Shown in pieces: positions 2,544-60,018 of a DNA stretch of 64,000 bases. The stretch's first letter is position 1; each line of letters starts with the position of its first letter. The notes beneath the pieces are model-generated. The model had not been told where the DNA came from and searched no databases. It worked only from the letters and a program-made list of their open reading frames with translations. The position numbers and the translations under genes were made by a program. This DNA comes from Styela clava (lineage: Eukaryota), in NCBI RefSeq assembly GCF_964204865.1, contig NC_135252.1:3720001-3784000 (forward strand), read 5' to 3'.

Positions 2544-3348
2544 GACAACCTAATGGGGCTGATTAGAATAATATTATAAACTAAAAATGAAATCAGAACA
2601 AACTTAGGTTATTAACCCTTACGTTAGATATTGACTGACATAAATAAACAAGGTCAATATTGCATGGCAAAGTAGCTGTAAAGCAAGAATAACATGAACA
2701 CCTGAATGTAAAGCTGCAATAATTGAGAGTTCTAACACAGATGGCTATAAAATAAATTTACATCTTCACAACAATCTAAAATGTTAGTTAAGGAGTTCAG
2801 CATTAAGTATGTCGAATATACAACAATTACCGGTATAAGCGTATAGAATACAAAAATAAAAATTTCACAAATACCGTAGTTTTTTTAGATTTGGAACCCG
2901 TCAAAGGAAATTGATAAAATACAAATCATGATATACAATTACAATCCAATATAAACTTTACTGAACTCTTCAGGGGATATGATAAAATTCTTTCCAGTGG
3001 TAGCCTACAACATGGATAAAACAGATCATGAACATTTTCAGTATAAACTAAGCTTGATTGAAGACATAAAGATTGGTAAGTAACAATGTGTTGGCATTTT
3101 TATACACAATCCTATGAATATTAACCCAAAAAATTCTTCAGTGAAGGCACTCATATTATTTACTTGATAAATCTAGTAAAGATTTTGAAATAGAAGTACT
3201 AGCGATATGACTGCTTGAATTGTCAGATACATTTGACAATTAATCCTCCTTTTCGTGAAGAATATGAATTTCTTATTTTCAAGTGCAGTTAAGGTTATAC
3301 ACATTTGGCATAGTTGTTTTGAGTGAATAGAAATAACCAATGTTTTAT

Positions 3349-11700: not shown

Positions 11701-12264
11701 TGTATTGTTTGGGTTGTCAATGTTTTAAGTCCGGAAATAAAAGAGGTGTTTGCAAAAATAGCCTGTCAAGACAGACAAAACTCGTCATGTCGAAGAGCTT
11801 GAGAACTCTATAGCGGATACTTTAATTCCTCCACCTGGGGGTAAATATGAAAATCTTACGGTATATTATTAAACAGTTTGCATCCAATTATCTATCTTCA
11901 AGGTCACGGAAAGGATCAACATGTTCAGTCAATTCCCTTCTTCTGGACAGTCCAGTTTGGAATCAGTATAAGGTACGCGGGACACGGAGGAGGCTTCGAT
12001 AATATCATAATCAAGGGCGTAGGAAAAAATGGAAAAATCGTTAAAGCTGGTGAGGCCCTATCATCTAAAAAATTTGTCGGGTTTTATGTGAAGAAGGACC
12101 ATGTGATAGCGGTGGCAACAATGATGGCTGATCCAATAGCTGCAAGGTTTGCAGAGCATTTAAATGACAAAGGCCCTCTGAAGGTAGATCAGATTGACAG
12201 TTTCTTGAAGGGTGACACTGGCGATGAAGGGAAGGGACACGTCGATAAATGCTCAATAAACTAA
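5709..12264 (+). CDS. AIFM3: Apoptosis-inducing factor 3-like Rieske 2Fe-2S / FAD-dependent oxidoreductase. Exons: 5709-5830, 6342-6519, 6711-6813, 7181-7425, 9264-9471, 9719-9831, 9898-10087, 10702-10848, 11192-11296, 11903-12264
   Basis: Rieske motifs CTHYGAPL and CPWHGACF; FAD motif IIGGGPA; PPYDRAKLSK; LFIATGG; NAD site VGSSFIAME; VYAGGD; HWQMA; SIPFFWT. All junctions are GT-AG with matching phases, and an in-frame TGA immediately precedes ATG 5709. Confidence 0.9.
6119..6206 (+). mobile_element. 5' head fragment of the tRNA-derived SINE (AIFM3 intron 1)
   Basis: ggctcgtcaggtatggcgcatcttgttagcg...cgccaccgcacctttgattaccctgcg...ggttcg matches the reverse complement of the right end of 55894-56237. 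Confidence 0.7.
8190..8890 (+). mobile_element. Decayed Tc1/mariner-superfamily transposase remnant in AIFM3 intron 4
   Basis: Broken frames give GIVGPYWFKDEN, SPDLNP and ENLYLKNVQTIGELKTATAAKISEIPTEECVQVIDNF, typical of the C-terminus of mariner/rosa-like transposases. Confidence 0.65.
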
Positions 12265-14083: not shown

Positions 14084-14664
14084 TCACAGTACATGAGCTG
14101 AAGTTGACTTTTTCATTTTCACAATTGCAGCATTCGAAGTAGACTCTCGTAGAAGTTTTTCAATATTTGAAAATGCTTCACTGCTGTTAATTATGCTACC
14201 GATGGCATCTGTTGCATAATTAGCATCATACACAAGCCCCTACAAGAAATGTAGTTTTAAAAACTATTTAATATAGGTGAATTTGACAAATAATGATCTT
14301 AACAACAATATGCACCAGTGGTATTTTGCAATTTTGGGAGTGAATTGGTGACACTATGTTGAATAATTCTGCACAAAAAATCCTTCTTCTTCAAATGGAA
14401 AAGCTATTTTATTCATGCCAACAAGAAGATGGCATCATCAATAGATAAACACTTATATACCTTGATTTGGTCATTTGTTTTCTTCATGTCATTACTGGCA
14501 TTAACTACCCTTGGAAGAGTCTTTTTTACATGTTGTTGTATTCGGTACAGTCCAAGTGAGGGTTCGTTTGCAATCATGTGTACAGTTTCATTAACTCCAA
14601 CGGAGGCTCTTTTGACTTTCAAGTCTAACTCCCTTTCTGGCCTATGTTGCATTGAAGCAGCCAT
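14084..14664 (-). CDS. BORCS8: BLOC-1-related complex subunit 8; exons 14664-14461 and 14239-14084, 119 aa
   Basis: ETVHMIANEPSLGLYRIQQHVKKTLP signature; phase-0 GT-AG intron; exon 2 reads GLVYDANYATDAI...; stop at 14086-14084. Confidence 0.88.
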
Positions 14665-15543
14665 TGGCTATCAAAAGAAATGAGAGAGGATATTCAAGGG
14701 AATTCAATATTTATTTCAGTTAGAAAAAAAATTCGATCGACAGATTATTGATATAGAAACATATGGTATGCCAACCGAAGACAAAATGATATCGCAAAGA
14801 ATTTCAAGCAGCTCAATTCTGTGACATATACTGATATAGTTATAACTTGTAACCATGTTATTGTGGTAGTCAAGCATCAACTGTCTACCATCCTGAGAAT
14901 GGCTTATATTGGAACTTTCAGTATAACATTTGGCAGTTTTCATGATAGCACAAAAGACATTTTATATTTTCCCATTGACTAGTAAAATTCAATTTTACGT
15001 CTTCTCGGATGCGGTGTGACAGTGTCAACTGTCAACGATTACAGATTCTAAACTACTCGTATGTATAATGGAAATATTATACATCAAACCGAGTACGTAG
15101 CGTTGTGGAAATGTAAAGAAAAGCTTGTAATACCTGAATCGAGCTGCTGTGCATGTCCAAAAAAATGCCGAGTGAAAATAACTGACTGGTTCCTACTGGA
15201 CGTCAAGTATACTGCACCTGTACCGTACCAGGGGAATTCCCAGAACTTGTCAGCTAGTCTTTTAATGAAATCTTAGTCGTTGGTTCAAACTTAAAGTAGA
15301 TGACATGTCAAGATGTGCCATATGAAAAATGTTGTGTGATTGCACTTGTTAATTATTAGTTACCGTATATTTTAAATTTTCGAAGAAAATTATAATAGCC
15401 ACCACCGTTTGTGTTACTGTTGACTCGATTTTGCAGTTTTGGAATATATTTATAAGATTTCAGTTATGTTTATTCTAAAATAACAACAAACTGAAAATTT
15501 AGAAATTGTACGGTAGTAACTGCATAAACGGAATACGGTTCTA

Positions 15544-21550: not shown

Positions 21551-21945
21551 TTTCTAGGCTTACCATACCTCCCGCTTTTTAGCGTCTTGTCCCGACAAGT
21601 CAGCCAAAAGTCCCGCTTCGGCGTTCAGCCATCCAGCATAATACACGAACATGTTCCCATTACTGTTGTTGCTGTGTAGCGCAGCGCTAGCCTACTTACT
21701 GAAGGTGAATGCGAATCTGAAGTAGACACTTTAATTTCATTGCATCTTATCATAAGTTTGTGCAGATGGCTGAAAGTATGTCCAAAACAAATGTTTTCTG
21801 TTTAGTCATATTGCATATTTTCTGTTATGATGTTATATTACATAATGGTATGATAATTTTTCAGAAATTTGTTCAATACTGCAGTAGAAAATACTTCTAC
21901 CAGTCTACCAATTCTACCTAAAAAGTCGAATACATGCTATAGCCT

Positions 21946-23385
21946 ATGATGTCTACTGAAAGTAAAGATATTGGACAGCTCGATGAAACAAAAAAGAAGG
22001 AAATAAAACATGACACAGTGGATAAAAAAATTCGATTTCCAAAGAAAAATGCTCAATATCGTGGAACTGGCAAACTTCCATGTCCAGATTTGGGAGATAA
22101 CTGGAAAATGGAACAAATTGTTCGACAACAAGGAAAATCTGCAGGAAAATATGACACATATTATTACAGTCCTGATGGTATAAAAGTCCGATCGAAACTT
22201 AAGCTCCAACAATTTTTAAACAAAAGTCTGGATAATTTCGATTTCAACACTGGAAAATATATTGAAAAAAATGAAAAACTTGAAACATCACCATCGGGTA
22301 AAGGAAAAATGGATAAAATAAAGACAAGTGAATTGAAAGTTATTGACAGACCAGTGGGTCGTGCTAGTAATCCATTGAGCATCAAAAATCGTGTAAAAGG
22401 ACCTTATTCTGCAACATTACAAATGCATGAAAGAAGAAGAAAACAGAAAGAGCTCAGTCATAGAACACAAGCTGTAAAATCTAAAGATATGAGCACAAGT
22501 GCTGCTATTCAGAGAGCAATCGAAATTGTTGAAAAAGATAACATTGATGAACAACCTTTCAGCCTTTTCAAGAATGAGGCCTTGCTCCTTGCTGACCATT
22601 TTACTGACATGGGATCAGAATTTGAAGATCTTGTTTTGTCTGCTTGGAAATGTCTCAGTGTCAAAAGCAAAAAACAATTTGAACAATACAGTTTTTTCCG
22701 GGCATCAAGCAAAAAAACGAATGTTAGAAAATATAGACGTTTTAGTGAAATGAGAAGAAAACGATGCAGGCAATGTACGGGTTGCCTAACAAATAATTGT
22801 GGAATGTGTGATGCTTGCAAAAATATGAAAAAATTTGGAGGGGATGGAAGTAAAAAGCAAAGTTGTGTATTACGTAGATGTGTGGCGATCCATTCGTCCA
22901 AAAACCCTTTAACAATGGTTCCCCAGCAATTACACAGTTTTTCTATTTCACAAACACTCTTGCCAAAAACAGTTCCACCATCTCGTAAAAGTTTCAGTGA
23001 CGTATTAGATTACAGCCCACTTGTGCCACATTCTTACCACAGTGATGAATCAAGAGGAATACATTCATATGGAACATTTTCTAATGAGCAATCAGCATTC
23101 ACTGATTTTCAGGCAAGAACAGGACAGTTATGTTTGGACAATGATGGCCAATTTCCAGACATATCTAAAAGTCAGGTTATACCAGATTTACAGTATCAAT
23201 CTTTTACCACCATTTCTGTTAATGATGAAATTATCAATAGCAATAATACCACAGATGCGCATGAGGATCATCCTGTTAATATGGACCAAAGCAACTCGCA
23301 GAAATTGCATAAAAGAAAGTCCAGAGTGCCTGTCTACATTAAGCAGGATAGTAAAGACAGGGAAATGGATATTTTTGTTTCATAA
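21946..23385 (+). CDS. MBD1-like protein: methyl-CpG-binding domain, degenerate HMG-box-like segment and CXXC zinc finger; intronless CDS
   Basis: 479 aa. MBD: [46 protein letters not shown]...FDFNTGK. CXXC: [43 protein letters not shown]. Confidence 0.88.
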
Positions 23386-32714: not shown

Positions 32715-34096
32715 GATTCATAACATTAGGATGATAGTCGCTCGGCAGTACATTGCTTCATTTACTACGCATACTTGTCCAAAGGGCCGAAGTTCCCCAA
32801 AACTAACTCAAATGAACCATAAATGAAATGAAGAAATGAATTTGGTTTTATTTTATTTTTTATAATTTTCAATCTCTACCCAAATTGTCACGCTATGCTG
32901 AACACGCGAGATATACCCAGAATTATGCTAATGATTTACATAGTTATTTAGCGCGTTTTTCTCGCAGTGGGTTGGAGCCACGTCTCTGTGGTCGTGTGTG
33001 TGTGTGCCCGTATTGACCTTGCATGTGCAATATTACACAGTCTCTACTTATTCACAAGCGGGATTGAACAATACCGTTGTTTGAATAACAACCCCACTCT
33101 TTATTTTACAATATTCTATGAAACGGTTGACTGGGTATGGTCCTTTGTCTTCTAGGTGTTTACTTCCCCTTACGTTATATGCCTTGGAATTTCATTTGAA
33201 CATTTCGGGTTGGCGAAGGTTCGCATTCTTCTGCGATCAGACTGGAAGACAATCTGTAGTTAGTAGAACGACAAGAATAAATAGTGCCGTGCACAGTGAC
33301 AAAACCGTAAATTAGATGCTGGATGAGTGAAATTTGCCATTTTTTATGTATTTAAGATTTTTATTGTGGATAGCTTCGAAGAAAATGTTTAGTTTCAAAT
33401 TCGTATATATTTTAAATAAAGGGGCCAAAAATGCACTCATATTCTTCCTTAACCTATAGTTTACATGTAGTCATATGACACAAATTTGGATTTACGCATT
33501 TATATAAAAACTTACAGTCAGCAAAGTTCGGATCTATTTTAGTCGTTGCAGGTGGATTTATCTCAAGTTTCTAACTTGAAAAATCAATTACGAGTGTTTT
33601 AATATCAGTATTAACGCTAATGGTAATGTCAGTTTGATTGGATGCACGTAAAGCACTGCTCTTATTTGTTGAATTTTTGTCCGAATAGCCTCTCGATTTC
33701 TGTTTTGAAATCATAATGAAATGTATACGTTGTGTATTTTTTTGAAAAAAAATTTTTATTTACAAAATAGAAGGTACCGGTAGATATTTACACTGCGAGC
33801 AAATCTTTTTCTCGTAAATATCTACCATGGGATGCGAAACCACAGTAGCTTTTCAGTAACGTGATGGAAAGTGTGTTATCGTCACGACGCGCTCGCTATT
33901 TCACTTATTTAATATGATTTCAATTTGTATGGTGCCTCAGTGATAGCTTGCAGCAAATGTAATGAAGTCCCACTTTTAGACGAGTGTTAACGACCTCGAT
34001 TTGAGATATCCAACGGACTACAATATCAACTCGAATTTGAATAACGTCATTCCAATTATTTAAATTAAACCAATCATGAAATAACTATATGTATAT

Positions 34097-36451
34097 ATGC
34101 CTTATACTATACACAGCTTTGATACTAAAACTAGCATGGATTCGGATCATTTATTGAATGATCTGGAGGCAATACCTGATGAAAAAATATCCGACGAGGA
34201 GTACGAGTGCGCGAACGATCTACAGCGACTTTGTACAAATTTTGGTGTAGAAGAAGAATGCAATTTAATAGCTTCCGCTGACGTGATTTTACGACTGGGA
34301 AAAATATATTTGGCGAAAGCGCGTTATAATGGTGTTCCAATACTTCAGAAACTGTCGTTCATAAAGTGCTGTGCACTATTGAATGGTGCAAGAGTTAGGT
34401 TCGAGATGAAACAAGCACATGACAAAGTAGAAAGTACAAATAAGCTACTTGATCAGTTCAGCGATCGATTATTAGATGCATGTAACGCACGGAAGAGGGA
34501 TAAAACTCTTCGTCTCATTTCGTGTGAAATTGCAGAAACTCTCAAGAAAATGAGAGCAGAATCCAAAGAAAATTTGTTTCGAATTAGTCCCAATGACGGC
34601 GAAGGAACGCACGAAAAAGAAAATATACTTATTTCAGAAGTCCAGAATTTATATTCTGATATCACTCAAATGTATAAAAGCCTCATGATAAAAATAACAG
34701 AGATCTGCATTGACATATTGGGTGAACCGCCCTGTAAATTCTGCCAGGTAGGGCTCGGTTCGATGGCTCGGGAAGAGATAACTTTATACTCTGACTTCGA
34801 ACACGTCATTATTCTTCAAGACGATATTGAGAAAGATGTTATCAGATATAAACACGCTAAAAACTACTTTAGATGGTTCGCCGTACTATTTCAATCCATA
34901 ATAATAGGCTTAGGTGAAACTTTTATTCGGAGTGTTGGCGTGAAATGCATTAACGACCTTTACAGTGGAGACCGCTCGAAAAATTGGTATTTTGATAATT
35001 TGACTCCCTGCGGTATTTCTTTTGATGGAATGGTTCCACATTCATGCATGAATCCATTAGGGAGACAGATTGCAACAAAAGCGAGAAAACATAAAGTTGA
35101 GTTGATTCAACCCGCAAAAAAGATGGCAAATTTTCTCACAACTGACGAACATGTGAAAAACGGTTACTATATGAAGGATATTTTAACAAGAACTTGCTTG
35201 GTTTACGGCGAAAGACAAGTATACGAGTCTTTTCGCTCTGCATCTCAAAAAATTCTTTTTCTAGAAGACACGTTAGTAGTTGTTGAGGATTCTTTGAATA
35301 AGATTACAGACAATTGCAACGAGTTCATTCGTGGGGCAAGAATGAGCCTACACTCGGAGGTATTCAATGCAAAAGTCACCTTCTACAGGCCTATTACTGC
35401 CTTATTGGCGTATCTGGGACGAATTTGCGAGATAGATGAGTCATCCAGTTTCAACATCGTTACTGAACTGTGTATAAATGGAATGATTCCGAAAAAAGTG
35501 GCTCACAAGATTCGTTATGCTGTTGCAGTTTCCTGTAAAATGCGAATGAAATCATATGTAGTTTCTGGTAACCAACGACACTCCTCACATGAAGCAATAC
35601 TTGACGAAATTGGAGAAAATGACTCATGGAAATGCTACAGGGTAATACAGTATCTTCACATTGCATTGCTTATTATTATGAAAGCTACCAGCGAACACGA
35701 TAATTGGCCTGAGAGATTAGAACAATTTAACACCGATTTCTTCGCTGATAATATTACAGAAGATGTTTTCAAACTCGTTGAGCTGGGCGAGTTCGAAAAA
35801 GCAGCCAGCGTAGGCGAAAAACACCTATATTTGATGAATAAAAAGCGAGATTATTTAAAATTATGTTGGCATTTGGTGGATTGCTATCGTCATTTAGCTA
35901 AGAAATACGAGGATAAACAAGATGAATACTTTACCAAACTCATTAACATATGTGAAAAAGTAATTCCAGATCCAGACTTGCCAGATGCTCCAAAAGGAGA
36001 CTTCTTATACACTTTGGCAGTAGCTTTGAAATACAAAGGAGAATTTGAATGTGCTGCTCGTGCATGTTGTGACTTTTTTGTATTGTGTCGTGAAAGCAGC
36101 GTCGCAAGGAAGGAACATGCGAACAATTATCCCAAAATGCTCAAGAGAGAAATTAAAATGAGATTGCAGTATATGGATCCTACCAAACTGCTACTCTACC
36201 TTCGAGCTCTCATGTTGGTAGAAGAAAAGAAAACAACTCGGATTATTATACGATTTGGAATTGCCCAGACGGAAATTCGTTTGGGAAACATGCCTATTGC
36301 AAAACATATGTTGGCCTCTCTGGTGGGAGATTTTCGAGACAATTCTCGAGAGACTCTCGATTTGGTGAACACCCTCGATCGTGTAGCTTTATTGCAAGAA
36401 TCTCAAGGATGGATGGAAGATTCTCTTATTGCTTTAGAGCAATTAGCGTAG
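34097..36451 (+). CDS. Pol-beta-fold nucleotidyltransferase (GlnD/GlnE/DUF294-like) with helical substrate-binding region and TPR-like repeats; N-terminal part of an interrupted ORF
   Basis: 784 aa. Motif PPCKFCQVGLGSMAREEITLYSDFEHVIIL fits hG[GS]x9-13Dh[DE]h. TPR-like helices follow, e.g. FLYTLAVALKYKGEFECA. Confidence 0.75.
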   Translation: MPYTIHSFDTKTSMDSDHLLNDLEAIPDEKISDEEYECANDLQRLCTNFGVEEECNLIASADVILRLGKIYLAKARYNGVPILQKLSFIKCCALLNGARVRFEMKQAHDKVESTNKLLDQFSDRLLDACNARKRDKTLRLISCEIAETLKKMRAESKENLFRISPNDGEGTHEKENILISEVQNLYSDITQMYKSLMIKITEICIDILGEPPCKFCQVGLGSMAREEITLYSDFEHVIILQDDIEKDVIRYKHAKNYFRWFAVLFQSIIIGLGETFIRSVGVKCINDLYSGDRSKNWYFDNLTPCGISFDGMVPHSCMNPLGRQIATKARKHKVELIQPAKKMANFLTTDEHVKNGYYMKDILTRTCLVYGERQVYESFRSASQKILFLEDTLVVVEDSLNKITDNCNEFIRGARMSLHSEVFNAKVTFYRPITALLAYLGRICEIDESSSFNIVTELCINGMIPKKVAHKIRYAVAVSCKMRMKSYVVSGNQRHSSHEAILDEIGENDSWKCYRVIQYLHIALLIIMKATSEHDNWPERLEQFNTDFFADNITEDVFKLVELGEFEKAASVGEKHLYLMNKKRDYLKLCWHLVDCYRHLAKKYEDKQDEYFTKLINICEKVIPDPDLPDAPKGDFLYTLAVALKYKGEFECAARACCDFFVLCRESSVARKEHANNYPKMLKREIKMRLQYMDPTKLLLYLRALMLVEEKKTTRIIIRFGIAQTEIRLGNMPIAKHMLASLVGDFRDNSRETLDLVNTLDRVALLQESQGWMEDSLIALEQLA

Positions 36452-36478
36452 ACTCCTTTTATTAAAGAAGAACAAAAA

Positions 36479-37711
36479 ATGTCAGTTGATCGTCGTATAC
36501 TGGAAATGCTGGTAAAACTACAACGCTGGGGTAAAGGAGTAAATTATATCAAAATGTATATGACTACGCTTTCCATAGAAAATAACTATGATCTTGTTGA
36601 GGCATTTAAACCGACTAAACAGAGTACACCGGGAGATTCAATGCTGAATAGTCGCAATATAGATGTTGGTCGTAAAAGCGCGAAAGGGTTTTTTCCTGGC
36701 GATGTACCTAATTTTTATGAAGTAGAACGGCATCTCACAAACGAATTTGAGAATAAGGCGGAATTTGAAAAGACGGGCTCACCCGCTGATGCGGTCGTGA
36801 AAATGATCAACTCCATTCCAAAGGATTACATGGAACTCAGTCAGCTACAACATTACAGCACATTGACAAGAATATTAATTTTATTAGGACAGTATGGTTA
36901 CCTTTTATTGAAAAACAATATTGAATGTCTGGCAAAGCTTGCCAATCTAATGGTTCTTGAACATTCTGAATATGTAGCTACTCTTTGGAGAATCATTCAA
37001 GACGTTGAATACGACCAAGCAAAAAAGTGTGATGCAGTGAGATATTTTTTAGATTACGTTTCAAAGAACTTGAAATCATCTAAGACAGTTACACGGAAAT
37101 CTCCAGAAATTGTTTTGAAAGATCACTTGGATGCCGCTACGATTGAAACATCCGCCTTGGCACTGATAGAAAATGCAAATAAGTGTATTGATAAGTGCAA
37201 GAATCAAACAGAAAACTTAGAATACTACAATCGAGTCTATGCCCAAATGCTTTCATTTGTGCTTCTTCGAATCGGAATTTCTGAATTTGACGAAGTAATA
37301 CTTATGCTGTTGGACGCACCGAATGACATACTTGAAGATGTGGTATTGAAAGAGAGCCTACTGATTTATTTCAGAACGTTTTTTGATGAGGCGCTGAAAA
37401 AGTTGAGCAAACAATATGACGAAGTTTGTGTTCGCAGATTGTCCATAGTGATGGAATTGATGTCACAAAATCTTGATGCCAGTGTTTTTTCCGCTGTGTC
37501 TGCAGTTCAAAAATCTGTGATTGAAATATCTGAGAAAGTGAAAAACGACAAGGACGGCCACTTTGTCGATCTTATCGATAATTTTTCTGAAATTGGCACA
37601 TTAAAAAATGAGGAATACGCTCCGATATTATGGAAGATAATAAACCGCGAATTATCTTCGAAAAAAAGGTCAAAAGCAATCTACTACTTGATCAATATTT
37701 TGGAAACTTAA
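36479..37711 (+). CDS. All-helical C-terminal continuation of the NTase-TPR gene (same frame, after a single TAG)
   Basis: 36479-34097 = 2382 (a multiple of 3); the nine intervening codons after the TAG are open (TPFIKEEQK). Confidence 0.65.
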   Translation: MSVDRRILEMLVKLQRWGKGVNYIKMYMTTLSIENNYDLVEAFKPTKQSTPGDSMLNSRNIDVGRKSAKGFFPGDVPNFYEVERHLTNEFENKAEFEKTGSPADAVVKMINSIPKDYMELSQLQHYSTLTRILILLGQYGYLLLKNNIECLAKLANLMVLEHSEYVATLWRIIQDVEYDQAKKCDAVRYFLDYVSKNLKSSKTVTRKSPEIVLKDHLDAATIETSALALIENANKCIDKCKNQTENLEYYNRVYAQMLSFVLLRIGISEFDEVILMLLDAPNDILEDVVLKESLLIYFRTFFDEALKKLSKQYDEVCVRRLSIVMELMSQNLDASVFSAVSAVQKSVIEISEKVKNDKDGHFVDLIDNFSEIGTLKNEEYAPILWKIINRELSSKKRSKAIYYLINILET

Positions 37712-37722
37712 AATACAGAACT

Positions 37723-37778
37723 AATCGAAACCGCAGTTTCGATCGATAAGCCTTCAGTCTCCGACCGATATTCTCGTT
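37723..37778 (+). mobile_element. Isolated 3' terminus of the HINE/DINE-1-like family
   Basis: aatcgaaaccgcagtttcgatcgataagccttcagtctccgaccgatattctcgtt matches 29552-29607. Confidence 0.8.
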
Positions 37779-39827
37779 ATTATCTTGGTAACTCTGCTAC
37801 GGTTCCCAATTTGCTGATTTGTATAGGGTTATCCGGTAAAGTATCGGAAACCAATCATTTTGTTTTTTATTCAATATTCCTGCAATTCAACAAGATCTGC
37901 ATAATCACGATATATAATGTAAATTAAGAGAATATATCGAATGTTTGTAATCCCACTAATGACTAATAGAAGCTTCTAATTACCTTGCATAACAATGCTC
38001 CCGCTGTCTTTAATACTGTGTGTACATATGTTATTTTGGCAAATATATTGTGGTAGGTTCATTAATGACAACCTTTAATAAAATATGTATTCAATAGTAT
38101 TTATATTTCTTGAACGGGTCTTTTCTTCAATAGTATTTATATTTTTTGAGTCCAATTACTTGTGCACTGAACCCCATTCGAAATTTTACGCATTTCAATT
38201 TTTTACTTTCGCTGTTTGTCAAAATTAGAAAGAGTAGATAACTAAGTTGTGGATGAATGACCCAGCAAATAATGCTGGAGGATAAATATAAAAAGTTGTT
38301 CTGGCTGCAAACCACGCCAGACGTCCACATAGCATGTGCAATAAATCCGGGAAATTCACTCAACACATCTAGCAATTATTGATCAAAAATAGGCATCATT
38401 ATTGCCCAGTGCTAGCGAAACAAAATGAAGATCAGCGTTCAAAATATAACAAACGGAAAGTAACTTGCCAGACAGCAACACACAAAATATGGCAGAGTCA
38501 GGCCGAGATAGGAACCCGTCACAATCACCAAGACCATTCGACGGGACAATTGGAACAATGTACAAGTACCATAGCGCTTCGCCTCCACAAAGTCAAGAAG
38601 AGAGTGGGCAGGGCTGTCGAGCCACCGCTGGTGGTAGTCAGATATTCTTGATGACGTCGATCCGAGTGATCGTACAATTTATCTTCGATCAGGGCTAGTA
38701 AAAGGCAGAGAATCGATAGTGCGATAATGGCTCCGAATAACGGTTCAGCATTTTTAAACGTTAACGAAAACAATGGCCAACTTGCATAGTTATAAATAAC
38801 GACTGCTTGTGGATCTGTAGCTTTTACATTTGTTTATAAAATATTGTATTCCGTCGTATTATAACAAATATCTAAATTTACAGGAAATTTGGATTTGGTT
38901 TATTTAACCATATCGACGTAATATATATATCTTTATTTGAATATACCAAAAATAATCAAGTTCATAAGTCCAAATTGACAATGGATTTTAATTTGCCCAA
39001 AAAGGGTTATTTATAACTGGGAAGTCGTTATTCCGAAGAATGGATTCGCACAGTCGTCGTTCCAATTTATTGCATTTTATCGCCATGATCGTCAGTAAAA
39101 CAACATTTAAAGTATTTCGCGGCGGTGGAGAGTTAAAAATTCATAAAACTGCAGACCTTCATATATTGCACAACAATGTTATTCATTGGCGTTGAGTTTC
39201 TCCGTGTCTAATAGAGCTACAAGTGTGAAGTCATCGTCAAAATAAACAGCAGGGCTTATAATTTTTTCCTTGTCAAAAATAATTTCACGCGTTTTTTTTT
39301 CACATTATATTGCTCTACATCGAGACTGAATTTTGGTTGGTGGAGAAAAGGCTGGCATGAGTAGCCTAACAATCCTGCAGATATAATCCAGACCACTGAG
39401 ATTCAAAACTATTTAACTTAACAGTAAATGCTTTATGTGTTTAGAAACATGTATTTGAGAACAAAATACAGTTGTTATTTGGCAAAAATCTAACATTACA
39501 GACACAATCACTGGATAAGCATGTTATTGTCTACACAGAAATTGGCTGAAATAAGCAGGCATCAAATGTTAAATGCGGAAACATTGTTTTGCATGGGTTG
39601 TTTCATTACTTTAGTTTGATAAGCAGCATTGGGCTATCACGAGTGATGAGTATTGCTCTGAATACATACAGCAAGCAAGCAAATCATTCTGTTGAAAATT
39701 GGCTTCCTTGCCTATTGGAGTGCCATTGTTGATTTGGTTGAAGAAGCATGGAAGGCTATTATCACTATATTTGCCTTTGATGCATTACGAGTTCTGGAGC
39801 CATCTGCAAAGTACACATTCGGCTGAA

Positions 39828-42018
<2,191 letters not shown>

Positions 42019-47005: not shown

Positions 47006-47033
47006 AAGTTGAACAAATCTCCCTGCGACGACG

Positions 47034-50000
47034 ATGAACGAAGCAGATGAATCAATTACACAAGATTTGAATAGACGAGAAGCTTCTTCTTCGCCTGCAG
47101 TTCCTCTCGCGGAAACAGACGACGGTAACTCTGAAACTATTGGACGCAATGTATTATGCCACGAAAGACTACAAAATGAACTAAATGGTTTGTGCGACAG
47201 ATTTTCAAAATCGATTACTGAAAATGCTCAAAATCCTATCGTTACTGATCTTAAAATTAAACTTCATGTTAAACGAATTGCTTATGACCAAGTGATGGAT
47301 AAACTCATTCCGACTACCCGTAATCCAAATGTTTTGAAGAAATATGAAACTGGAATGCAAATGATGTTATCGAAAATCGATCAAATTGAAAGCAGAAATT
47401 TTATTCTTACCTTGACGAGGAGATCGTTTCTGATCATTGGTCTGCCGAATCCAATACAAGCAAATGCAGTGTTGAATCACTGAAGCGATTGCAACTTGAG
47501 CAAGAACGAGAGGTAGAAAGAGCCGATTCTCTTGTACGTATGGCTAAACGAGACTTTCTCACAGAAGAAGATACCATTCGCAATAAAATATCAGCACTAG
47601 AGCGTCGCCTTGATCACAAACGTCGAGACATAAACGAAAAAGAACGAATGGCAGATCTAACACGTCGCCAAGCTGACGAACTTATGCGTGAAATTGAACA
47701 AGAAAAGACTGAATTGGCTACCAAAAAGATGCCTAAAGATAACTTACGTGGCGTCAATATTGAATATCCGTTAGAGTCAACACGCAGACGAAGTGCAGCG
47801 AACTTTTTTGTTCCGACGAAGAGTCAAGTGACAACAAATTCAGAAAAGACCAAAGAATTGCACTTCCCGACAGCACGAACTTACAAACGCCCGTCTCCTG
47901 CAAACAGAATGCTTATACCACAAGAAGCAGTCGACGCGTGGATTGACCACTTGGAACCTAACCAGTCTGGTAAATTTTCTGTTAATTCTTTTAATATGTC
48001 AGTAGAGGAACAAACTATGTTATCATTACAGTTGAATTCTAGAATATTGTCCCAGTACCATTTATCACCGATTACGATTCCTAGTTTTAGCGGAACGACC
48101 CTAGAATGGCCAAACTTTATTGAGTTATTTTTTGATAATGTACACAGTTCTCTTGACGACGACGGTTCGCGTATGGTTCGCTTAGTCGCGTCTTTGACGG
48201 GGGTGGCTAAACGACATGTCGATGGCTTAGGGACGGTGGGAAGTAATTTATTGTCGCGTTGAGTGAATTGAAACATATATTCGGCCAACGGGTGACGATT
48301 GCTCGGGTCTTTATCGAGAAGGTTGTAGATGGTAGACGAGTAACAGAATTCAGTATCCGGAAAATATCTGATTTTCATTCTGAAGTTCGCGACATTGTGA
48401 TAAATTTGAAGAAAATGCGATTGCTTGCAGATTTGTATAGTATTGAAAATGTTAGAAAGACAGCAATGCGAATTCCGACCGAACTGACCTCGAGTTGGAA
48501 TAAGTTTGTGACTGATATGATTCGTGCCGACGAAATGCCGAGTTTACTGGACTTCGAGCAGTGGTTGTGGGAACGATGCGAGGAATTAGGAAATCCTTTT
48601 TCACCAAATCTTTTCAGAACTAAAATAGATCGTGACGATCGCAGACAGTCATTTCCTAAGAAGAATGTGGTATACCCTTTATCGGGTCATTCAAATCAGC
48701 CGCTCGACCAACCGCGAATGCAATGTTTCTATTGCAATGGTTTTCATTCTTTGAGTAACTGCGATAGCTTCGGGTTTAGTGCCAATGACACGAAAAGAAG
48801 ATTTCTACTAGATTCACGCCTGTGTTTTAACTGTCTCGAACCTGGACATTTAGCTATTTCGTGCCGGTTCCGCAATATGTGTCGTGTTTGTCCTAGTAAG
48901 CATCATTCAGCCATCTATGGTTTGAGAATCGTTCCTAATAGATTGAGTGATAACAATCAGCCTGATCTTCCTCCTCATATGAGCGGCGTTGCCAATTCTC
49001 ATATTTCAGGCGTTAATGGTGTTCAGTTTCAGATTTTGCCAGTCGTAGTAAAAGGCCCATTGGGATCCTCTGAATATGCTATTGCTGTTCTAGATTCTGC
49101 CAGTCAAATCTCAATAATACATCCCAAATTAAAACAAAAACTTGGTTTAAAAGGAAGTCCTAGGTGTCTAACCATTAACACCTTATGCAATAAGGGCGTT
49201 TCGCAAAATACGGAGGTGGTGAAATTGTCGGTGCGATCTGCTCACGACGAGAGTGGTCAAATTCTGATGTTAAGCAACGTGTTTGTGGTCGAGTCACGCA
49301 TACCACATCCAGCTAGAATCCTTAAGAACGATCACAATATGACTCACCTGCAGGATATTCCGTTAACCGACATTGAAGCGAACAAAGCTATGATTTTAAT
49401 CGGAGCCGATAATCCCTTAGCGCATTTCTAGCTTGAACGTAGAGTCGGCCAGCAACATGAACCAGTGGGTATTAAAACTCCTCTCGGTTGGACTTTGATC
49501 GGGTCTTTAGGCGCGATTAATGAAGATGAAACTGTTTCAAATATGCTGTGTTGTGATTTGCGTGACCAGTATAACATGCTGCAAGAACAAGTCGAGCGAT
49601 TTTGGTCCACTGAAGCTGTAGGCACGGCGTACAATTTGACCCGTAGCGAGTCGATTGAAGATAGACAAACTGATAATTTGATGGAAAAAAAAATTAGATT
49701 TATCGACGGTCATTACGAGGTTAGGTTTATGTGGAGAAATGAAAATTGCGAAATGCCGCAAAACGAACACGTAGCGCTTAACAGGTTCGAAAATCTTAGA
49801 AAACGACTCCAAGGAAACGAACGTTTGCGAAACTTATATTGTAAAGAAATGGCAAAGAATATTGAAAGGGGTTGGGTGCGTAAGCTAACTTCAGATGAAA
49901 AGGCGTTTCGCGGTCCTCGAACTTGGTTTCTGCCTCATCATGGCGTTGAAAATCCCAACAAGCAAAATAAAATAAGAATTGTTTTTGACGCGGCATCTAC

Positions 50001-53000
50001 TTGCTGCGGCGTCAGTCTGAACAGTCGATTGATGTCCGGGCGCGATTTGATCAATAATCTAGTCGGGGTGCTTTTACGTTTTCGGGAAAGACCAATCGCT
50101 ATAAACGCCGATATAGAAGCCATGTTTCATATGATTTGATTGCCGGAAGATGATACGGATTCTGCACGTTTCCTCTGGTCGGAAGACCTTTTTTCAACCA
50201 AACGGCCAGATGTGTATAAATTCTTAGTTCGTATTTTTGGAGCTGTGGATTCACCTTATGTCGCAAACTTTTGTTTGAAGAGAGCTGCGTACGATAGTAG
50301 AAATAAGTTTCCTAGAGACGTAATATTAACTACCGATAGAGACTTTTACGCCGATGATTTACTTACTTCGAAATGGAATGTTGATTCCGCGGTATCGACA
50401 GCTAAAGATATGATTAAGATGTTACACGATAAAGGATTCAAGTTGACCGAGTGGGTTTCGAATTCTAAATCGGTTTTACGTGAAATATCCAGTGGACGTG
50501 TCGTCACTAATGTTGACTTAGATCTGGTCAGATTACCTGTTAGAAAAGCTCTTGGCTTGCATTGGGACATCGAGAAGGATTGCTTTATATTCGACCACCA
50601 GAAATTTACTGAATTTACCACGAAAAGAAAGGCCCTTAGTGTAACCAGTTCAATATTCGATCCACTAGGATTTGTAGCACCAATCATATTGTATGCCAAA
50701 TTATTACTGCGGGAATGTTGGCGTGACAATTTAGCTTGGGACGAAGTATTCGATAATAAGAGATTGAAGTGTTGGGAAAATTGGATAAATTCGCTGAAAT
50801 GTTTAAAGAGTTTTTTGATTCCACGTCAATTTAAAGGTGTTAAATGTGAAAGTTCCTCGTATGAAATTCATATATTCTGTGATGCATCAGAAGTGGCATA
50901 TGGCGCGGTAGCATACATAATATCGAAGCATTCCCGGGAGAATTTTCAGTGTAGTCTTATCGCGGCTAAAGCAAGAGTCGCACCTATGAAAGGTATGACC
51001 GTGCCTCGTTTAGAATTGCAAGGTGCTCTCTTGGCCGTGCGATTGTTAAATTTTCTCCGAAAAGAACTATCCCTTCCACTAGGCGACGTACATATGTGGT
51101 CCGACTCGACTTGTGTATTGAGATATTTAAAAAATAAAACTCGAAGATTTAAAACATTTGTAGCCAATCGCGTTCGCGAAATACTCGATCACACTCGGCC
51201 ACACCAATGGAAGTACGTCGACTCCGCACAGAATCCCGCTGATTACTGCACTAGGGGAATGACGGTTTCCAGATTTCTAGAAAATTTTGATCGATGGCTA
51301 CATGGACCAGAGTTTTTGCTCATGCCCGAAAGTGATTGGCCAAGCCAGATAGCGTTACGTGCAGTTGACGACTATGACCAAGAGATTAAATATCAAACAT
51401 GCATAATAGCAGATTGTTTTATAACCGCGGATAACCCGTGCCTCGTTTAGAATTGCAAGGTGCTCTCTTGGCCGTGCGATTGTTAAATTTTCTCCGAAAA
51501 GAACTATCCCTTCCACTAGGCGACGTACATATGTGGTCCGACTCGACTTGTGTATTGAGATATTTAAAAAATAAAACTCGAAGATTTAAAACATTTGTAG
51601 CCAATCGCGTTCGCGAAATACTCGATCACACTCGGCCACACCAATGGAAGTACGTCGACTCCGCACAGAATCCCGCTGATTACTGCACTAGGGGAATGAC
51701 GGTTTCCAGATTTCTAGAAAATTTTGATCGATGGCTACATGGACCAGAGTTTTTGCTCATGCCCGAAAGTGATTGGCCAAGCCAGATAGCGTTACGTGCA
51801 GTTGACGACTATGACCAAGAGATTAAATATCAAACATGCATAATAGCAGATTGTTTTATAACCGCGGATAACAGCGATGGAGTACTTGATTCGGAAATCG
51901 AAAAGGTCGTTGATGTCAAACGTTTTGATTCGTGGTTTTCCTTATGCAAACGAACTGCCGTGGTTTTGTTGGCAGCTCGGTATTTTAAGAATCTTTCTGT
52001 GAAATGTCCGACGTATAGCCCGCTGCCAGCTCAACTTGTGACGCCTAAACAGTTGGAACTCGCGGGCCGGTATTGGATAGTTTCTGCTCAAAACAAGCAT
52101 TTCCGCGTGGAGCGCAAATGCATAACTAACGGAGAAGATTTATCATCAAAATCAACGTTACTTAATTTGACGCCATTTTTCGATGGACAAGTGATCCGCG
52201 TCGGGGGCCGTCTTGAAAATGCCAATATCCCACTGCGTTCGAAACATCCTATTATACTGCCGTATTCAAGTTTGAAATGTGATTCGAACTGCCCATGTCG
52301 AATTTCATGGTTGATAATGAAAGCTGCTCATATTCGACTCGCACATGCCGGTCCAGAGGCCACGCTTAGCGAATTAAGACAGCGCTACTGGCATATAAAA
52401 GGGAGAAAACTTGTCAAACGAATAATTGATAATTGTTGGGAATGTAAAAGACGTCGAGCAAGTTGCAGAACCCCACTGATGTCGAATCTGCCCAAAGTTC
52501 GTGTTACTGAAGCAAGACCGTTCGAAAATGTCGGGCTGGATTTCTTCGGCCCGATTCAAACAGAGGCAGGGTTTTAGAGAAACGATGGGGGTGTTTGTTT
52601 TGTTGTCTTTCAATGAGAGCTGGACTATGGATACCGATTCCTTCATATGTGTACTTTTGTCTTTCATTGCGATACGAGGACCTGTATCCCAAATATGGTC
52701 GGACAACGGATCAAATATAGTTGGTGGTTCCCGAGAGCTGAAAACCGTCATTAACTCGATAGATAAATCTCGCGTGGCAGAACTGTGCTTAAAACACAAT
52801 ATTGAATGGCATTTCACTCCACCTTACGCTCCCCATTTTGGTGGCGTTTGGGAAAGATTAGTAAAGTCCGCAAAGCGTGCTTAGAAAGCAGTTCTGGGGA
52901 ATGTGCGCGTAACCGACGAAGTCCTGAAGACCGCGTTTGCGAGGGTTACCGACATCATGAATAGTAGACCCATTACAACAGTGAGCGACGAACCAACCGA

Positions 53001-53382
53001 TTTTAGTGCCATTACACCAAATTGTTTGTTGAAAGGGCATTCGGCCGAAGTGTTTCCACTGGATTCAGACGTAATGAAATTATGCTACAGAAAACGATGG
53101 AGGCAAACCGAAGCTATTTGTAATCAGTTTTGGAGAAGATGGCGAAAAGATTACCTACCGAATTTGATGACACGGTGTAAGTGGCGGAAGGAACAACGAA
53201 ACTTACAAGAAGGAAATCTGGTGCTCGTTTCTGACCCCGTTGCACCGAGAGGACGTTGGCAACTTGGTCGTGTTATTCAAATTTACCCTGGTTCTGACGG
53301 ACGAGTCCGAACTGCCGCGGTTAAAACTATAAATGGCATATATATTCGACGCGCATCGAAAATCTGCCTCCTAGAAGAATGA
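47034..53382 (+). pseudogene. Disrupted gag-pol polyprotein of the BEL/Pao element
   Basis: ORF pieces 47034-47483, 47489-48262, 48259-49431, 49465-50139, 50140-51450, 51438-52577, 52501-52884 and 52903-53382, separated by stops and frameshifts. Confidence 0.92.
50999..51872 (+). repeat. Exact tandem duplication of 437 bp within the RNase H region
   Basis: 50999-51435 equals 51436-51872 (ccgtgcctcgtttagaattg...accgcggataac). Confidence 0.95.
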
Positions 53383-58067: not shown

Positions 58068-58580
58068 ATTATGTATGTATCTCAAACTACTCTATCACCT
58101 TTTTAGTAATGCCCAATCAGCGTAACCTTTTGTGGCTATCTTTATTCTCTTATCACATTGTATTCCACACATTATCTGTGAATCAGATTGAATTATAAGA
58201 TTGAGTGTTTTAAAAGTACAACAACCCGAAAGTGCAAAACATTCCAGCATTTGCATATTTTTTGTTTGTTCTGGCCCAAGCCTTGTTTAACTAGGTTTGT
58301 GATTTTGTAATTTTTTGTGTATGATGGTGATATTTCTCATGTTTCGAAAGTTTTACGGTACTTGCACTCGAGAATTTTATGTGTTCAATTTATGTGTATT
58401 ATGGAGTTTTCAAAATATTTTATATATCTACATACATTGTCACTGAAGTGATTGAAGAAATTTTGAAATCGATATTGTTGTGAAAAAGTTGTTAGCTATG
58501 ATGATCATTTTACTAACTACTATCTTTCCTCTAAATTCAGTAATATTTTATATAGTTCCAAATTGCTATTAAATAGAAAA

Positions 58581-59093
58581 ATGGGGAATGACTTATCTTT
58601 ACCGATGGAAATGTGCTCTCATTTTGACCCGGAAGAAATTGCCAGATTGGGGAAGCGATTTCGAAAACTTGATCTTGACAACTCTGGTTCTCTGAGTGTT
58701 GAAGAATTTATGTCTCTACCAGAACTGCAACAAAATCCTCTTGTGCAACGAGTAATTGATATTTTTGACCAGGATGGAAATGGAGAAGTGGATTTCCGAG
58801 AATTTATCGAAGGAGTTTCTCAATTCAGTGTGAAAGGTGACAAACAGTCCAAGCTGAAGTTTGCATTTAGGATTTATGACATGGATCATGATGGCTTTAT
58901 CTCCAATGGCGAACTTTTCCAAGTGTTGAAAATGATGGTTGGAAGCAATCTCAAAGACTCACAGCTACAACAGATTGTTGATAAGACAATCATTTATGCA
59001 GACCTTGATGGCGATGGTAAAATTTCATTTTCTGAGTTTTGCGCCATGGTCGATACTCTTGATGTTCATAAGAAAATGGTGGTAGATGTATGA
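58581..59093 (+). CDS. PPP3R1: Calcineurin subunit B (4 EF-hands), 170 aa, intronless CDS
   Basis: MGNDLS myristoylation-type start at ATG 58581; [42 protein letters not shown]...[10 protein letters not shown]. Confidence 0.97.
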
Positions 59094-60018
59094 TTATATA
59101 TATGTATATATTTCGCATGTTTAAATTATATCTGAACAAAAGTATAGATGGGTATTTAAAATGAAGCAGGTATTATATTATTGTTTGCACCAACAACTGT
59201 ATGTGGAAAATACATATTACACATTTTATGGGCTGTTGCTTTTGCAATCATGCATTGCAAATAGATTGCCGATATATTATCAATTTCTTACTGTTGTGAT
59301 ATGTAAGTATTTCAATTTACTTGCTGTACTGAATGTTATATTTGGTTGACATATTGGTAATGCAGATGCCCCTACTATTAAATTTTCCTGAATATATGTT
59401 TTAGGTTTATGTAGCATAGATATGTTTGATATCAAGACTTGTGAGTTTGTTTGTGAAATGTATTCTTCTGCCATGTATGTTCAGTGTTTTGTCTTATATT
59501 ATAAAGAGATTATTTGTGAATTGCCATTATTTCTATAATACTTGATCATAATAAGGTTTCATTCAGATCTATTTTCATTTGAATTGGTCAAAGTCATTGA
59601 CAGAAAAAATTCTACAAATGAATGTCATTTAAAGCTTATTAGCCCAATACGTTTTAATGGACTACAGAATTACGAGTTTAGAGATTCCGATAGTCTGCCT
59701 AATAGAACCTTGACAAAAGGTGTCTTCCATTTATTCTTCATTTCATGTGCCTTATATTTTGAATGTTTTTTATCAGACCTAGTGTATAATCTTATTAGAT
59801 TATAAAAAAATACCTAAAACATGTTGCGTTTCTATATGTGATGCTGTCTCAATATTTGCACTGTATGTCTTCTGATTTTCAAAGTGATGTCTGTAATCTT
59901 GTTTATATGTATTTGTAGGTTTTATATATTATATTTGTTGTTATTATTGCAAACACTAAATGTATTTATCTGTGATGTTTAATTTTTTCAGGTTTATAGG
60001 GAAAATAATATATGTAAT

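Follow-up and report, generated by a model that had tools for sequence, protein, structure and literature searches.

A likely protein-modifying nucleotidyltransferase with a TPR-like tail in the tunicate Styela clava, related to proteins of intracellular bacteria

Background

GlnD modifies or demodifies proteins. The same holds for all the characterised members of the GlnE/DrrA structural clade, as described in sections of PMC8097203 and PMC12409994. Table 1 of PMC3710099 restricts the HEPN family of the GlnD/GlnE/DUF294_C type to bacteria, and a 2015 survey reported DrrA-like proteins to be very rare and limited to Legionella (PMC4454073). In the corresponding part of a 2021 review, metazoan AMPylases fall into two classes, Fic and SelO, and the substrates of the Fic protein FICD are also selected via TPRs (PMC8097203). 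A combination of DUF294 and TPRs has been described in Neochlamydia, whose NEX2 proteins have the architecture F-box[-OTU]-DUF294-TPR; the portion of PMC4209131 that deals with them proposes that they are host-directed effectors and gives no experimental characterisation of NEX2. Finally, cGAS-like receptors are expanded in invertebrates and some of them carry TPRs (excerpt of PMC8195603).

The gene studied here belongs to a family of which we found no description in animals in the literature. PMC2794190 makes no mention of DUF294, GlnD, TPR, Branchiostoma or Ciona, and the main text of the Styela genome paper (PMC7540406) mentions neither nucleotidyltransferase nor TPR nor DUF294.

Results and discussion

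Gene structure, alleles and transcription

The window is a 64,000-nucleotide stretch of the Styela clava genome. The gene (Table 1) had been presented in a first-pass annotation as an intronless open frame of about 1200 codons. Its lack of introns is confirmed by an RNA-like run in which one contig of 3,620 nt covers positions 34132-37750 without any joint. The frame itself is not open: an overlooked in-frame TAG at 36449-36451 cuts the 34097-37711 frame into 784 and 419 aa. Base 36449 is a C (Gln) in five of the six contig sets covering the site (X5, X9, X10, X1, X7) and a T, as in the window, in X3; X17 and X12 do not cover it. Since X1 and X3 come from one sample, both letters are present in that sample, and the C read by five of the six sets identifies the TAG as a nonsense allele in a transcribed gene of ~1,190 codons. 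The window haplotype would encode a product of 771-784 aa with an intact enzyme core and no distal tail, and other alleles would yield the full-length protein. Besides the upstream in-frame ATG at 34097, there is a second one at 34136, which we infer to be the start codon because the RNA-like contigs over the gene begin at 34125, 34132, 34181 and 34182 and the alignments of the paralogues start near this Met. RNA-like contigs from three studies cover the gene, which is thus transcribed, the RNA status of these runs (none of which is recorded as RNA) being deduced from RBBP4 splicing and from empty intergenic bins.

An intronless gene with a bacterial-type domain could raise the suspicion of bacterial contamination or misassembly, which the first-pass annotation had named as fatal to its reading. 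Both are refuted by a 4,111-nt DNA contig that spans 33000-36688 with two differences, by the presence of paralogues on eight chromosome-scale contigs and by the cover of the gene in the same RNA-like runs that splice RBBP4. The neighbouring genes (MBD-CXXC, the spliced RBBP4, MICAL-like), a GC content of 0.38 that equals that of the window and the grouping of the paralogues in a clade of their own, separate from bacteria, also speak against an artefact, to which we give almost no credence.

Table 1 Features of the Styela clava NTase-TPR gene, in positions of the window
Feature	Position	Strand	Basis or remark
Single-exon coding region	34136..37711	+	~1,191 codons from the second ATG (34136); TAG-interrupted in this haplotype
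N-terminal helical module, aa 33-135	34193..34501	+	Family-wide HMM matches; predicted helices
GlnE/DrrA-type Pol-beta nucleotidyltransferase and C-terminal HEPN-like helical bundle, aa ~138-532	34508..35692	+	Pfam, Foldseek, structure comparison
Catalytic motif G221-x11-D233-x-E235	34751..34804	+	Counterpart of DrrA G98/D110/D112
GISFD310G, candidate third metal-binding acid	35012..35029	+	Putative equivalent of DrrA D150, unaligned
HEPN-like four-helix bundle	35267..35650	+	Near-invariant K426, R431, R483, Y487; T434 at the DrrA Asp249 position
Putative degenerate TPR-like helical solenoid, aa ~545-784	35729..36448	+	Helical hairpins; structure and profile comparison
Premature TAG, polymorphic nonsense allele	36449..36451	+	Gln codon in other haplotypes/individuals (contig comparison)
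Distal tail, aa 786-1204	36452..37711	+	Two copies of the Styela-type 'LW[KR]II' repeat (aa 963, 1178)

Domain architecture and predicted fold

The description of the core as a GlnD/GlnE/DUF294-type nucleotidyltransferase (NTase) followed by a helical bundle was borne out by Pfam, Foldseek and structure matches. Pfam DUF294 (PF03445) matches aa 181-258 (E 2.7e-10, 40.7 bits for a cut-off of 21) over positions 16-87 of the 138 of its profile only; it was detected at E<=0.05 in 44/44 family members, and DUF294_C in 22/44. SidM_N, the Pfam domain of the DrrA AMPylase, reaches 12.6 bits in the window protein, under its cut-off of 27, and matches 8 of the 44 members (best E 4.9e-7), some of these relatives exceeding the cut-off. 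The NCBIfam GlnD equivalog scores 13.3 for a cut-off of 799 in the window protein.

The motifs previously read from the letters, namely GLGSMAREEITLYSDFEH (aa 219-236), GISFDG and the helix A..CKMRMKSY...NQ (aa 475-493), were all recovered in place. The NTase pattern used by the earlier reader did not occur once when the protein was shuffled 20,000 times, and G-x11-D-x-[DE] is kept in 401 of the 406 family core domains. Across 92 domains from tunicates, amphioxus, an annelid and bacteria, identity reaches 95% or more in 24 columns, among them G221, S222, S232, D233, E235, E274, D300, D310, K426, R431 and R483. The D310 position holds a D in 91/92 rows and an E in the degenerate paralogue; its region has a low pLDDT in the model and HMMER gave no alignment to DrrA D150. 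The core also has a family-specific insertion (GET...WFYD..TP.G..FDG), and the HEPN RNase motif Rx4-6H is not conserved (8/92 domains).

The structural search that had been proposed as a check returned a Pol-beta NTase fold, with DrrA and GlnE as the closest solved structures. The best Foldseek matches of the core are DrrA (E 1.8e-6) and GlnE domains. In a VIA search of 48,161 chains, the core model matched the GlnE structures 1v4a (Z 22.9) and 3k7d (Z 20.8) and DrrA (Z 20.8), the only ones with Z>10; DrrA fragments followed (Z 9.1 and 8.1) and other families did not exceed 6.6. A longer model ranks DrrA 6yx5 first (Z 22.5 vs 19.4, rmsd 3.9, 326 aligned residues). DrrA is also the best PDB match by sequence, and profile A4 retrieves 6yx5 (E 9.7e-4), with a colinear alignment of both the motif and the bundle. 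The bundle (model residues 244-371) matches 3l0i at Z 8.1 and HEPN domains at Z 4.6-6.5. For the core we therefore predict the fold of the domains with which GlnE and DrrA adenylylate proteins.

In these models, the fold of the N-terminal AMPylase domain of Legionella DrrA/SidM (6yx5, 3nku) would be shared over 326 of 339 residues, together with the G-x11-D-x-[DE] motif and the aligned K and R of the bundle. The two proteins are nevertheless only 15% identical, and the tunicate one is an endogenous animal product with a TPR-like tail and without Pfam GEF or P4M domains. Moreover, the passage of PMC8097203 on the DrrA active site describes Asp249 as a metal ligand. Its counterpart, T434 here and T, S or H across the family, is acidic in 0/92 domains, so the active site differs from that of DrrA. 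An NTase followed by a HEPN-like bundle is likewise common to the AT and AR domains of GlnE (GS-ATase), GlnD and DUF294/DUF294_C (Z 18-23), from which the tunicate protein differs by its insertion and by the lack of any detected HD, ACT or CBS domain.

The tail had been described as all-helical/TPR-like, which structure and profile comparison suggest for its proximal part. The model of aa ~545-784 matches the TPRs of LGN and KLC at Z 13-16, values that a shared arrangement can already give to helical repeats, and hhalign relates it to the TPR tails of relatives (prob 83%, E 8.7e-6). Pfam TPRs, which are numerous in relatives and present in paralogue L046, match neither the 784-aa nor the 419-aa part of the window protein, and aa 786-1204 matched neither a TPR profile in hhalign nor any Pfam or NCBIfam family. 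Between paralogues, identity falls from 38-48% in the core to 11-18% in the tail.

Possible functions

Judging by analogy with these relatives, the protein would be a cytosolic enzyme that moves AMP or another NMP to a hydroxyl of a protein target picked by its variable tail, a reading to which we assign a probability of about 0.5. In this mechanism, D233, E235 and D310 would bind Mg2+ and the NTP, and K426 and R431 would contact phosphate. The substrate would be a protein, as for GlnE, GlnD and DrrA, and the divergence of the tail relative to the core suggests that the former would select the target or regulate the enzyme. The proposed chemistry, which can be directly tested as NMP transfer by the expressed core, would be that of the metazoan AMPylases FICD and SelO; these have unrelated catalytic folds (Fic and pseudokinase) and are conserved as single copies rather than expanded.

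The de-adenylylating GlnE domain, 1v4a, scores above the other structures in the core search (22.9 vs 20.8), which runs against the reading as a writer. This match and the absence of an Asp249 counterpart could instead indicate an eraser: like the N-terminal domain of GlnE, it would strip proteins of NMP through phosphorolysis, perhaps reversing AMPylation by intracellular bacteria. Yet the longer model and the sequence search both put DrrA first, and the host-directed role that the relevant part of PMC4209131 proposes for the bacterial kin fits writers better, which makes an eraser quite unlikely.

The first-pass annotation had left open whether the enzyme NMPylates proteins or makes nucleotide signals. 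Repeats resembling a sensor next to an NTase, the lineage-specific expansion and weak structural neighbours such as Hailong HalB (Z 6.0) and aminoglycoside adenylyltransferases (Z 6.0-6.6) would be compatible with a tail-activated synthesis of oligonucleotides or cyclic nucleotides, or with the adenylylation of a small molecule. Nevertheless, these Z values are one third of those of GlnE and DrrA, and the window holds no effector gene linked to the NTase-TPR gene. cGAS and OAS, which share the Pol-beta superfamily with the tunicate protein, are absent among the matches listed in the Foldseek and structure searches, and the window protein has no Pfam match to a Mab21/OAS-type domain; its top structural matches and its HEPN-like C-terminal lobe place it in the GlnE/DrrA clade instead. 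As the fold and this bundle are typical of protein-modifying enzymes, protein modification is favoured and signal or small-molecule synthesis appears unlikely.

Distribution and evolution of the family

Far from being an orphan, the gene belongs to a large, expanded animal family. The paralogue count suggested earlier gave 23 loci in the Styela clava genome, 17 of them with open frames >1,000 aa. Relatives were found in Clavelina, Branchiostoma and Owenia, where P0162 contains an OTU domain, and on gene-sparse metagenome contigs, attributed to animals on their low coding density and tree position; Pfam searches on 42 selected flanking ORFs of four such loci returned one endonuclease fragment as the only eukaryotic marker. 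The HMM of the N-terminal module (iE<1e-3) matches 18/20 Styela, 8/8 Branchiostoma and 1/1 Owenia proteins, 247/259 rows without species assignment, 15/102 Neochlamydia proteins, 1/13 environmental NEX2-like proteins and the bacterial L099, and 0/2 canonical DUF294 proteins. An ESM Atlas search with the homologue P0004 returned bacterial DUF294 clusters only (top 0.95, 13% SidM_N) and is uninformative on the animal range.

The closest bacterial kin are the Neochlamydia NEX2 proteins and one bacterial contig, so that the NTase+TPR layout does exist in bacteria. NEX2 proteins are true homologues (E 3e-24, 27.8% identity across 91% of the core; a single replicon carries 12 matches) and share with the tunicate protein the conserved residues, the C-terminal TPRs and a lineage-specific expansion. 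Most of them have an F-box, whereas Pfam finds none in the tunicate protein, whose tail is degenerate. This kinship ties animal genes to an uncharacterised family of bacterial effectors.

The phylogeny separates the tunicate proteins from NEX2 in a clade of their own (100/100). Bacterial sampling is thin throughout, and the tree that includes L099 is a quick one. The lateral transfer envisaged at first may have run in either direction: an AU test neither rejected nor demonstrated a single clade of animal and unassigned rows (p 0.516). Rooting on two Vibrionaceae DUF294 proteins proved unreliable, with a branch of ~6.8 changes per site. In a GTDB scan with tunicate-type patterns, three of 82 pattern matches passed, all of them 20-aa Streptomyces hits judged spurious; since these patterns also miss Neochlamydia, this negative covers the tunicate-type subfamily in those genomes only. 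None of eight pattern matches in viral contigs passed. The 1.5-kb flanks of the paralogues have no common terminal repeats except between tandem neighbours and in dispersed repeats, so a mobile-element vehicle is unsupported.

From the models and comparisons above, the gene likely encodes a hitherto undescribed animal enzyme that modifies proteins and is akin to proteins found in intracellular bacteria. That kinship and a birth-and-death expansion suggest that it may act in host-microbe conflict. A conserved, transcribed and expanded animal family with a GlnE/DrrA fold would make a third metazoan AMPylase class. A bolder and rather doubtful version of this idea is that marine invertebrates captured an effector with this fold from intracellular bacteria and multiplied it to tens of copies in each genome; the variable TPR-like tails would sense pathogen or guarded host proteins, with NMPylation as an innate-immune output.

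Alternatively, the family could be non-catalytic or decaying, its members being decoys, scaffolds or drifting duplicates of little function. This scenario would fit the nonsense allele of the window, the metagenome loci, where many copies are broken, and the near-identical tandem pair L036/L037, with a stop in the tail of one copy and no N-terminal module in its neighbour. In addition, six of the 23 Styela loci are broken and the intact paralogue L046 has lost the catalytic motif, which makes some of the copies either non-catalytic or dispensable. A non-catalytic or decaying family is improbable, given the retention of the motif in nearly all core domains, the 17 long intact frames, transcription and dN/dS ratios below 1. 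The test for positive selection suggested for the tail gave region-wide values all <1 (0.39-0.73 between paralogues), and the core, with 0.14-0.51 in the 10 of 11 pairs that were computable, is under purifying selection. The nonsense allele, which keeps the enzyme and loses the distal tail, constitutes a natural test of the role of the tail.

Gene structure, transcription and surroundings

The sequence motifs named in the first-pass annotation are present at their positions, but the open frame of ~1,200 codons that it described is broken by an in-frame TAG (36449-36451) into 784 and 419 aa. This stop is a real polymorphic nonsense allele, since position 36449 is C in five of the six contig sets from public sequencing runs that cover it (X1, X5, X7, X9 and X10) and T in X3; X12 and X17 are without cover of this base. 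X1 and X3 are two runs of a single DNA-like sample. X5, X9 and X10, from three studies, behave as RNA, because the RBBP4 intron is spliced out and the intergenic bins are empty, and X7 is a fourth RNA-like set. The gene is transcribed and its coding region is intronless; a single X5 contig of 3,620 nt covers 34132-37750 with no joint. The RNA-like contigs begin at 34125-34182, which favours ATG 34136 as the start codon, assembled contigs being uninformative on expression level and on the true 5' end. Within the core, the X3, X5 and X7 alleles differ by at least 6 non-synonymous and at least 4 synonymous changes, and no listed change falls on a conserved catalytic position. Shortly 3' of the stop codon that ends the coding region lies a very high-copy repeat of ~55 bp (37723-37780), where every RNA-like contig breaks.

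Contamination or misassembly, raised earlier as an objection, was looked for in assembled contigs and is not the case: contamination is ruled out by an X1 contig running across 33000-36688 with 2 differences, by base composition (GC 0.38 vs 0.35-0.37 around; GC3 0.36 vs 0.26-0.31 in four neighbours) and by the adjoining genes, which are ordinary animal genes. Several neighbours also lie in long uninterrupted frames, which shows that genes with few introns are common in the window.

Genes and elements neighbouring the NTase-TPR gene
Feature	Position	Strand	Remarks
MICAL-like CH+bMERB protein	261-2549	-	
Exons presumably of an AIFM3-like Rieske/FAD oxidoreductase	~6300-12260	+	Name suggested by translation
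Exon(s) presumably of BORCS8	14413-14667	-	Name suggested by translation
MBD+CXXC protein	21943-23385	+	
RBBP4	39828-42018	-	One intron, 40008-40875
Pao/BEL-type LTR retrotransposon remnant	47013-53382		Zinc knuckle, protease, Peptidase_A17, integrase zinc finger, DUF5641; across several frames
EF-hand protein	58467-59093	+	
UVSSA	59983-62703	+	

Predicted fold and putative activity

The protein is predicted to fold like GlnE and DrrA. Foldseek on an AlphaFold2 model of aa 1-784 (44 aligned sequences; pLDDT 87.1, pTM 0.83) returned the Legionella AMPylase DrrA (PDB 6yx5) first (E 1.8e-6) and two GlnE domains next, bearing out for the predicted model the Pol-beta NTase fold proposed before. With VIA-align, this model matched DrrA with Z 22.5 (rmsd 3.9, 326 aligned, model 69-535), the GlnE domains 1v4a and 3k7d with 19.4 and 18.4, and, in its tail, LGN/KLC-type TPRs (Z 13-16). 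A core-only model (pLDDT 78.5, insertion at low confidence) searched against 48,161 chains matched 1v4a (Z 22.9), 3k7d (20.8) and 6yx5 (20.8); two DrrA fragments scored 9.1 and 8.1 and everything else 6.6 or less. An eraser activity, such as that of the de-adenylylating 1v4a, is nevertheless unlikely. By sequence only, the family profile matches DrrA in two colinear stretches (E 9.7e-4).

G221/D233/E235 align to DrrA G98/D110/D112, and K426/R431 to K241/R246 (DrrA numbers are those of the printed alignment with an offset of 12). In contrast, D249 of DrrA, which passages of PMC8097203 give as a metal ligand, aligns to T434, a position acidic in 0/92 family domains, bacterial ones included, which disfavours an active site identical to that of DrrA. 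The family-invariant E274, D300 and D310 could compensate for the absence of this acid. The HEPN RNase motif is not conserved in the bundle (8/92 family domains).

By analogy with GlnE, GlnD, DrrA and FICD, from which its chemistry, substrate class and tail role would follow, the protein is most likely a protein NMPylase, with a probability of about one half. Binding of Mg2+-NTP would fall to the NTase lobe, while the helical bundle would touch the phosphates and the substrate and the fast-diverging solenoid would pick or gate the target. A signal or small-molecule transferase seems rather improbable. The NMPylase proposal is directly testable.

Some members are already labelled DUF294 or "PII uridylyltransferase N-terminal domain" in databases, so the domain assignment itself is not new. 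The gene is real, its parts are ordinary and their setting is unusual: a known kind of enzyme, apparently undescribed in print for animals. No description of animal members was found among the listings and abstract starts of a full-text literature search in which subscription journals are largely absent. Keyword passages came from PMC4209131, PMC3710099, PMC3482391, PMC8195603, PMC8097203, PMC4454073, PMC12409994 and PMC7540406; in PMC2794190 the keywords had no match.

Paralogues in the Styela genome

The paralogue count suggested in the first-pass annotation gives at least 23 loci on 8 contigs (26 core matches), a lower bound. Open frames exceed 1,000 aa in 17 of them and six are broken, including the window gene; database entries for these copies read "uncharacterized protein". 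Core identity to the window protein is 38-48% for eighteen paralogues; their tails, whose alignment is uncertain, are 11-18% identical to its tail. Selection on the paralogues is purifying and a little more relaxed in the tail: across 11 closely related pairs chosen for the comparison, NG86 dN/dS ranges from 0.14 to 0.51 for the core, where 10 pairs could be computed, and from 0.39 to 0.73 for the tail. Positive selection, for which the first-pass annotation suggested testing the TPR region, was thus not seen region-wide in these pairs, nor was it in the core. A non-catalytic or decaying family, of which the broken loci might be taken as a sign, is quite unlikely.

The divergent paralogue L046 (L046:1880-6190; G000:C2:21.80 Mb, - strand; 1,437 aa) has a degenerate catalytic motif (GP...SKVE) and TPRs recognised by Pfam. 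Its identity to the window protein is 26% in the core and 14% in the uncertainly aligned tail, and it groups in the tree with non-Styela sequences outside named taxa; it is a candidate older pseudo-enzyme. L036 and L037 (G000:C5:24.107-24.118 Mb) form a tandem pair with almost the same sequence (dS about 0.006); a stop at codon 742 interrupts the tail of one, and the open frame of the other is without the N-terminal module.

Distribution and evolutionary relationships

The core profile matched 2,319 representatives among 1.84 billion searched at E<=1e-3 (1,550 at 1e-10; 621 at 1e-30), the weakest probably including canonical DUF294 proteins. Named members, with the best 150 of the 2,319 covered, come from Styela, Clavelina, three Branchiostoma taxa and Owenia fusiformis; of 10 members looked up, 5 had a name. 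Most others are ENA proteins without organism name, with DUF294 and canonical TPRs. Metagenome contigs bearing family genes are otherwise poor in coding sequence, consistent with eukaryotic DNA. Of 55 metagenome loci (L053-L107), 54 belong to the tunicate-type subfamily; their contigs are nearly devoid of further long frames, and many of the loci are interrupted by in-frame stops, a birth-and-death pattern as in Styela but in other organisms.

The Neochlamydia S13 replicon matches with 27.8% identity over 91% of the core and has 12 matches. Its proteins have the F-box, DUF294 and TPR architecture of the NEX2 family, described in passages of PMC4209131 as 50 proteins, ten with OTU, proposed to be host-directed. 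A search with the Neochlamydia core gave 838 matches; among the 120 of them listed, Branchiostoma was the only named source outside Neochlamydia. The animal-type layout (N-module, NTase and TPR) is also found on the gene-dense contig L099 (L099:7488-10316), whose protein best matches Branchiostoma proteins. This contig looks bacterial (GC 0.32; PD-(D/E)XK nuclease and integrase neighbours) and, at a guess from gene content, is host-associated. The expansion pattern and the kinship with symbiont proteins might hint at an immune role.

For the trees, 408 core domains were reduced to 94 by removing those <300 aa and redundant ones, then 5/45 remaining unnamed rows; for slower models, two subsets (45 and 44 rows) were used. 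Joined by one unnamed row, the Styela paralogues make up an expansion of their own (support 100/100), and the NEX2-like rows form a clade (100/100). With the latter as outgroup, named animals and tunicate-type unnamed rows share one side of the quick tree (SH-aLRT 92, not starred), and L099 and P0066 fall apart from it. Since the architecture is shared and the range patchy, exchange between animals and intracellular bacteria, in either direction and in one or more events, is likely. This retains part of the lateral acquisition proposed earlier; neither direction is favoured, the root being unstable when canonical DUF294 serves as outgroup and the AU test giving a neutral result (p 0.516). The Branchiostoma proteins P0059, P0060, P0061 and P0095 and the Owenia protein P0162 carry 2-3 NTase domains each, and P0162, like ten NEX2 members, also has an OTU peptidase.
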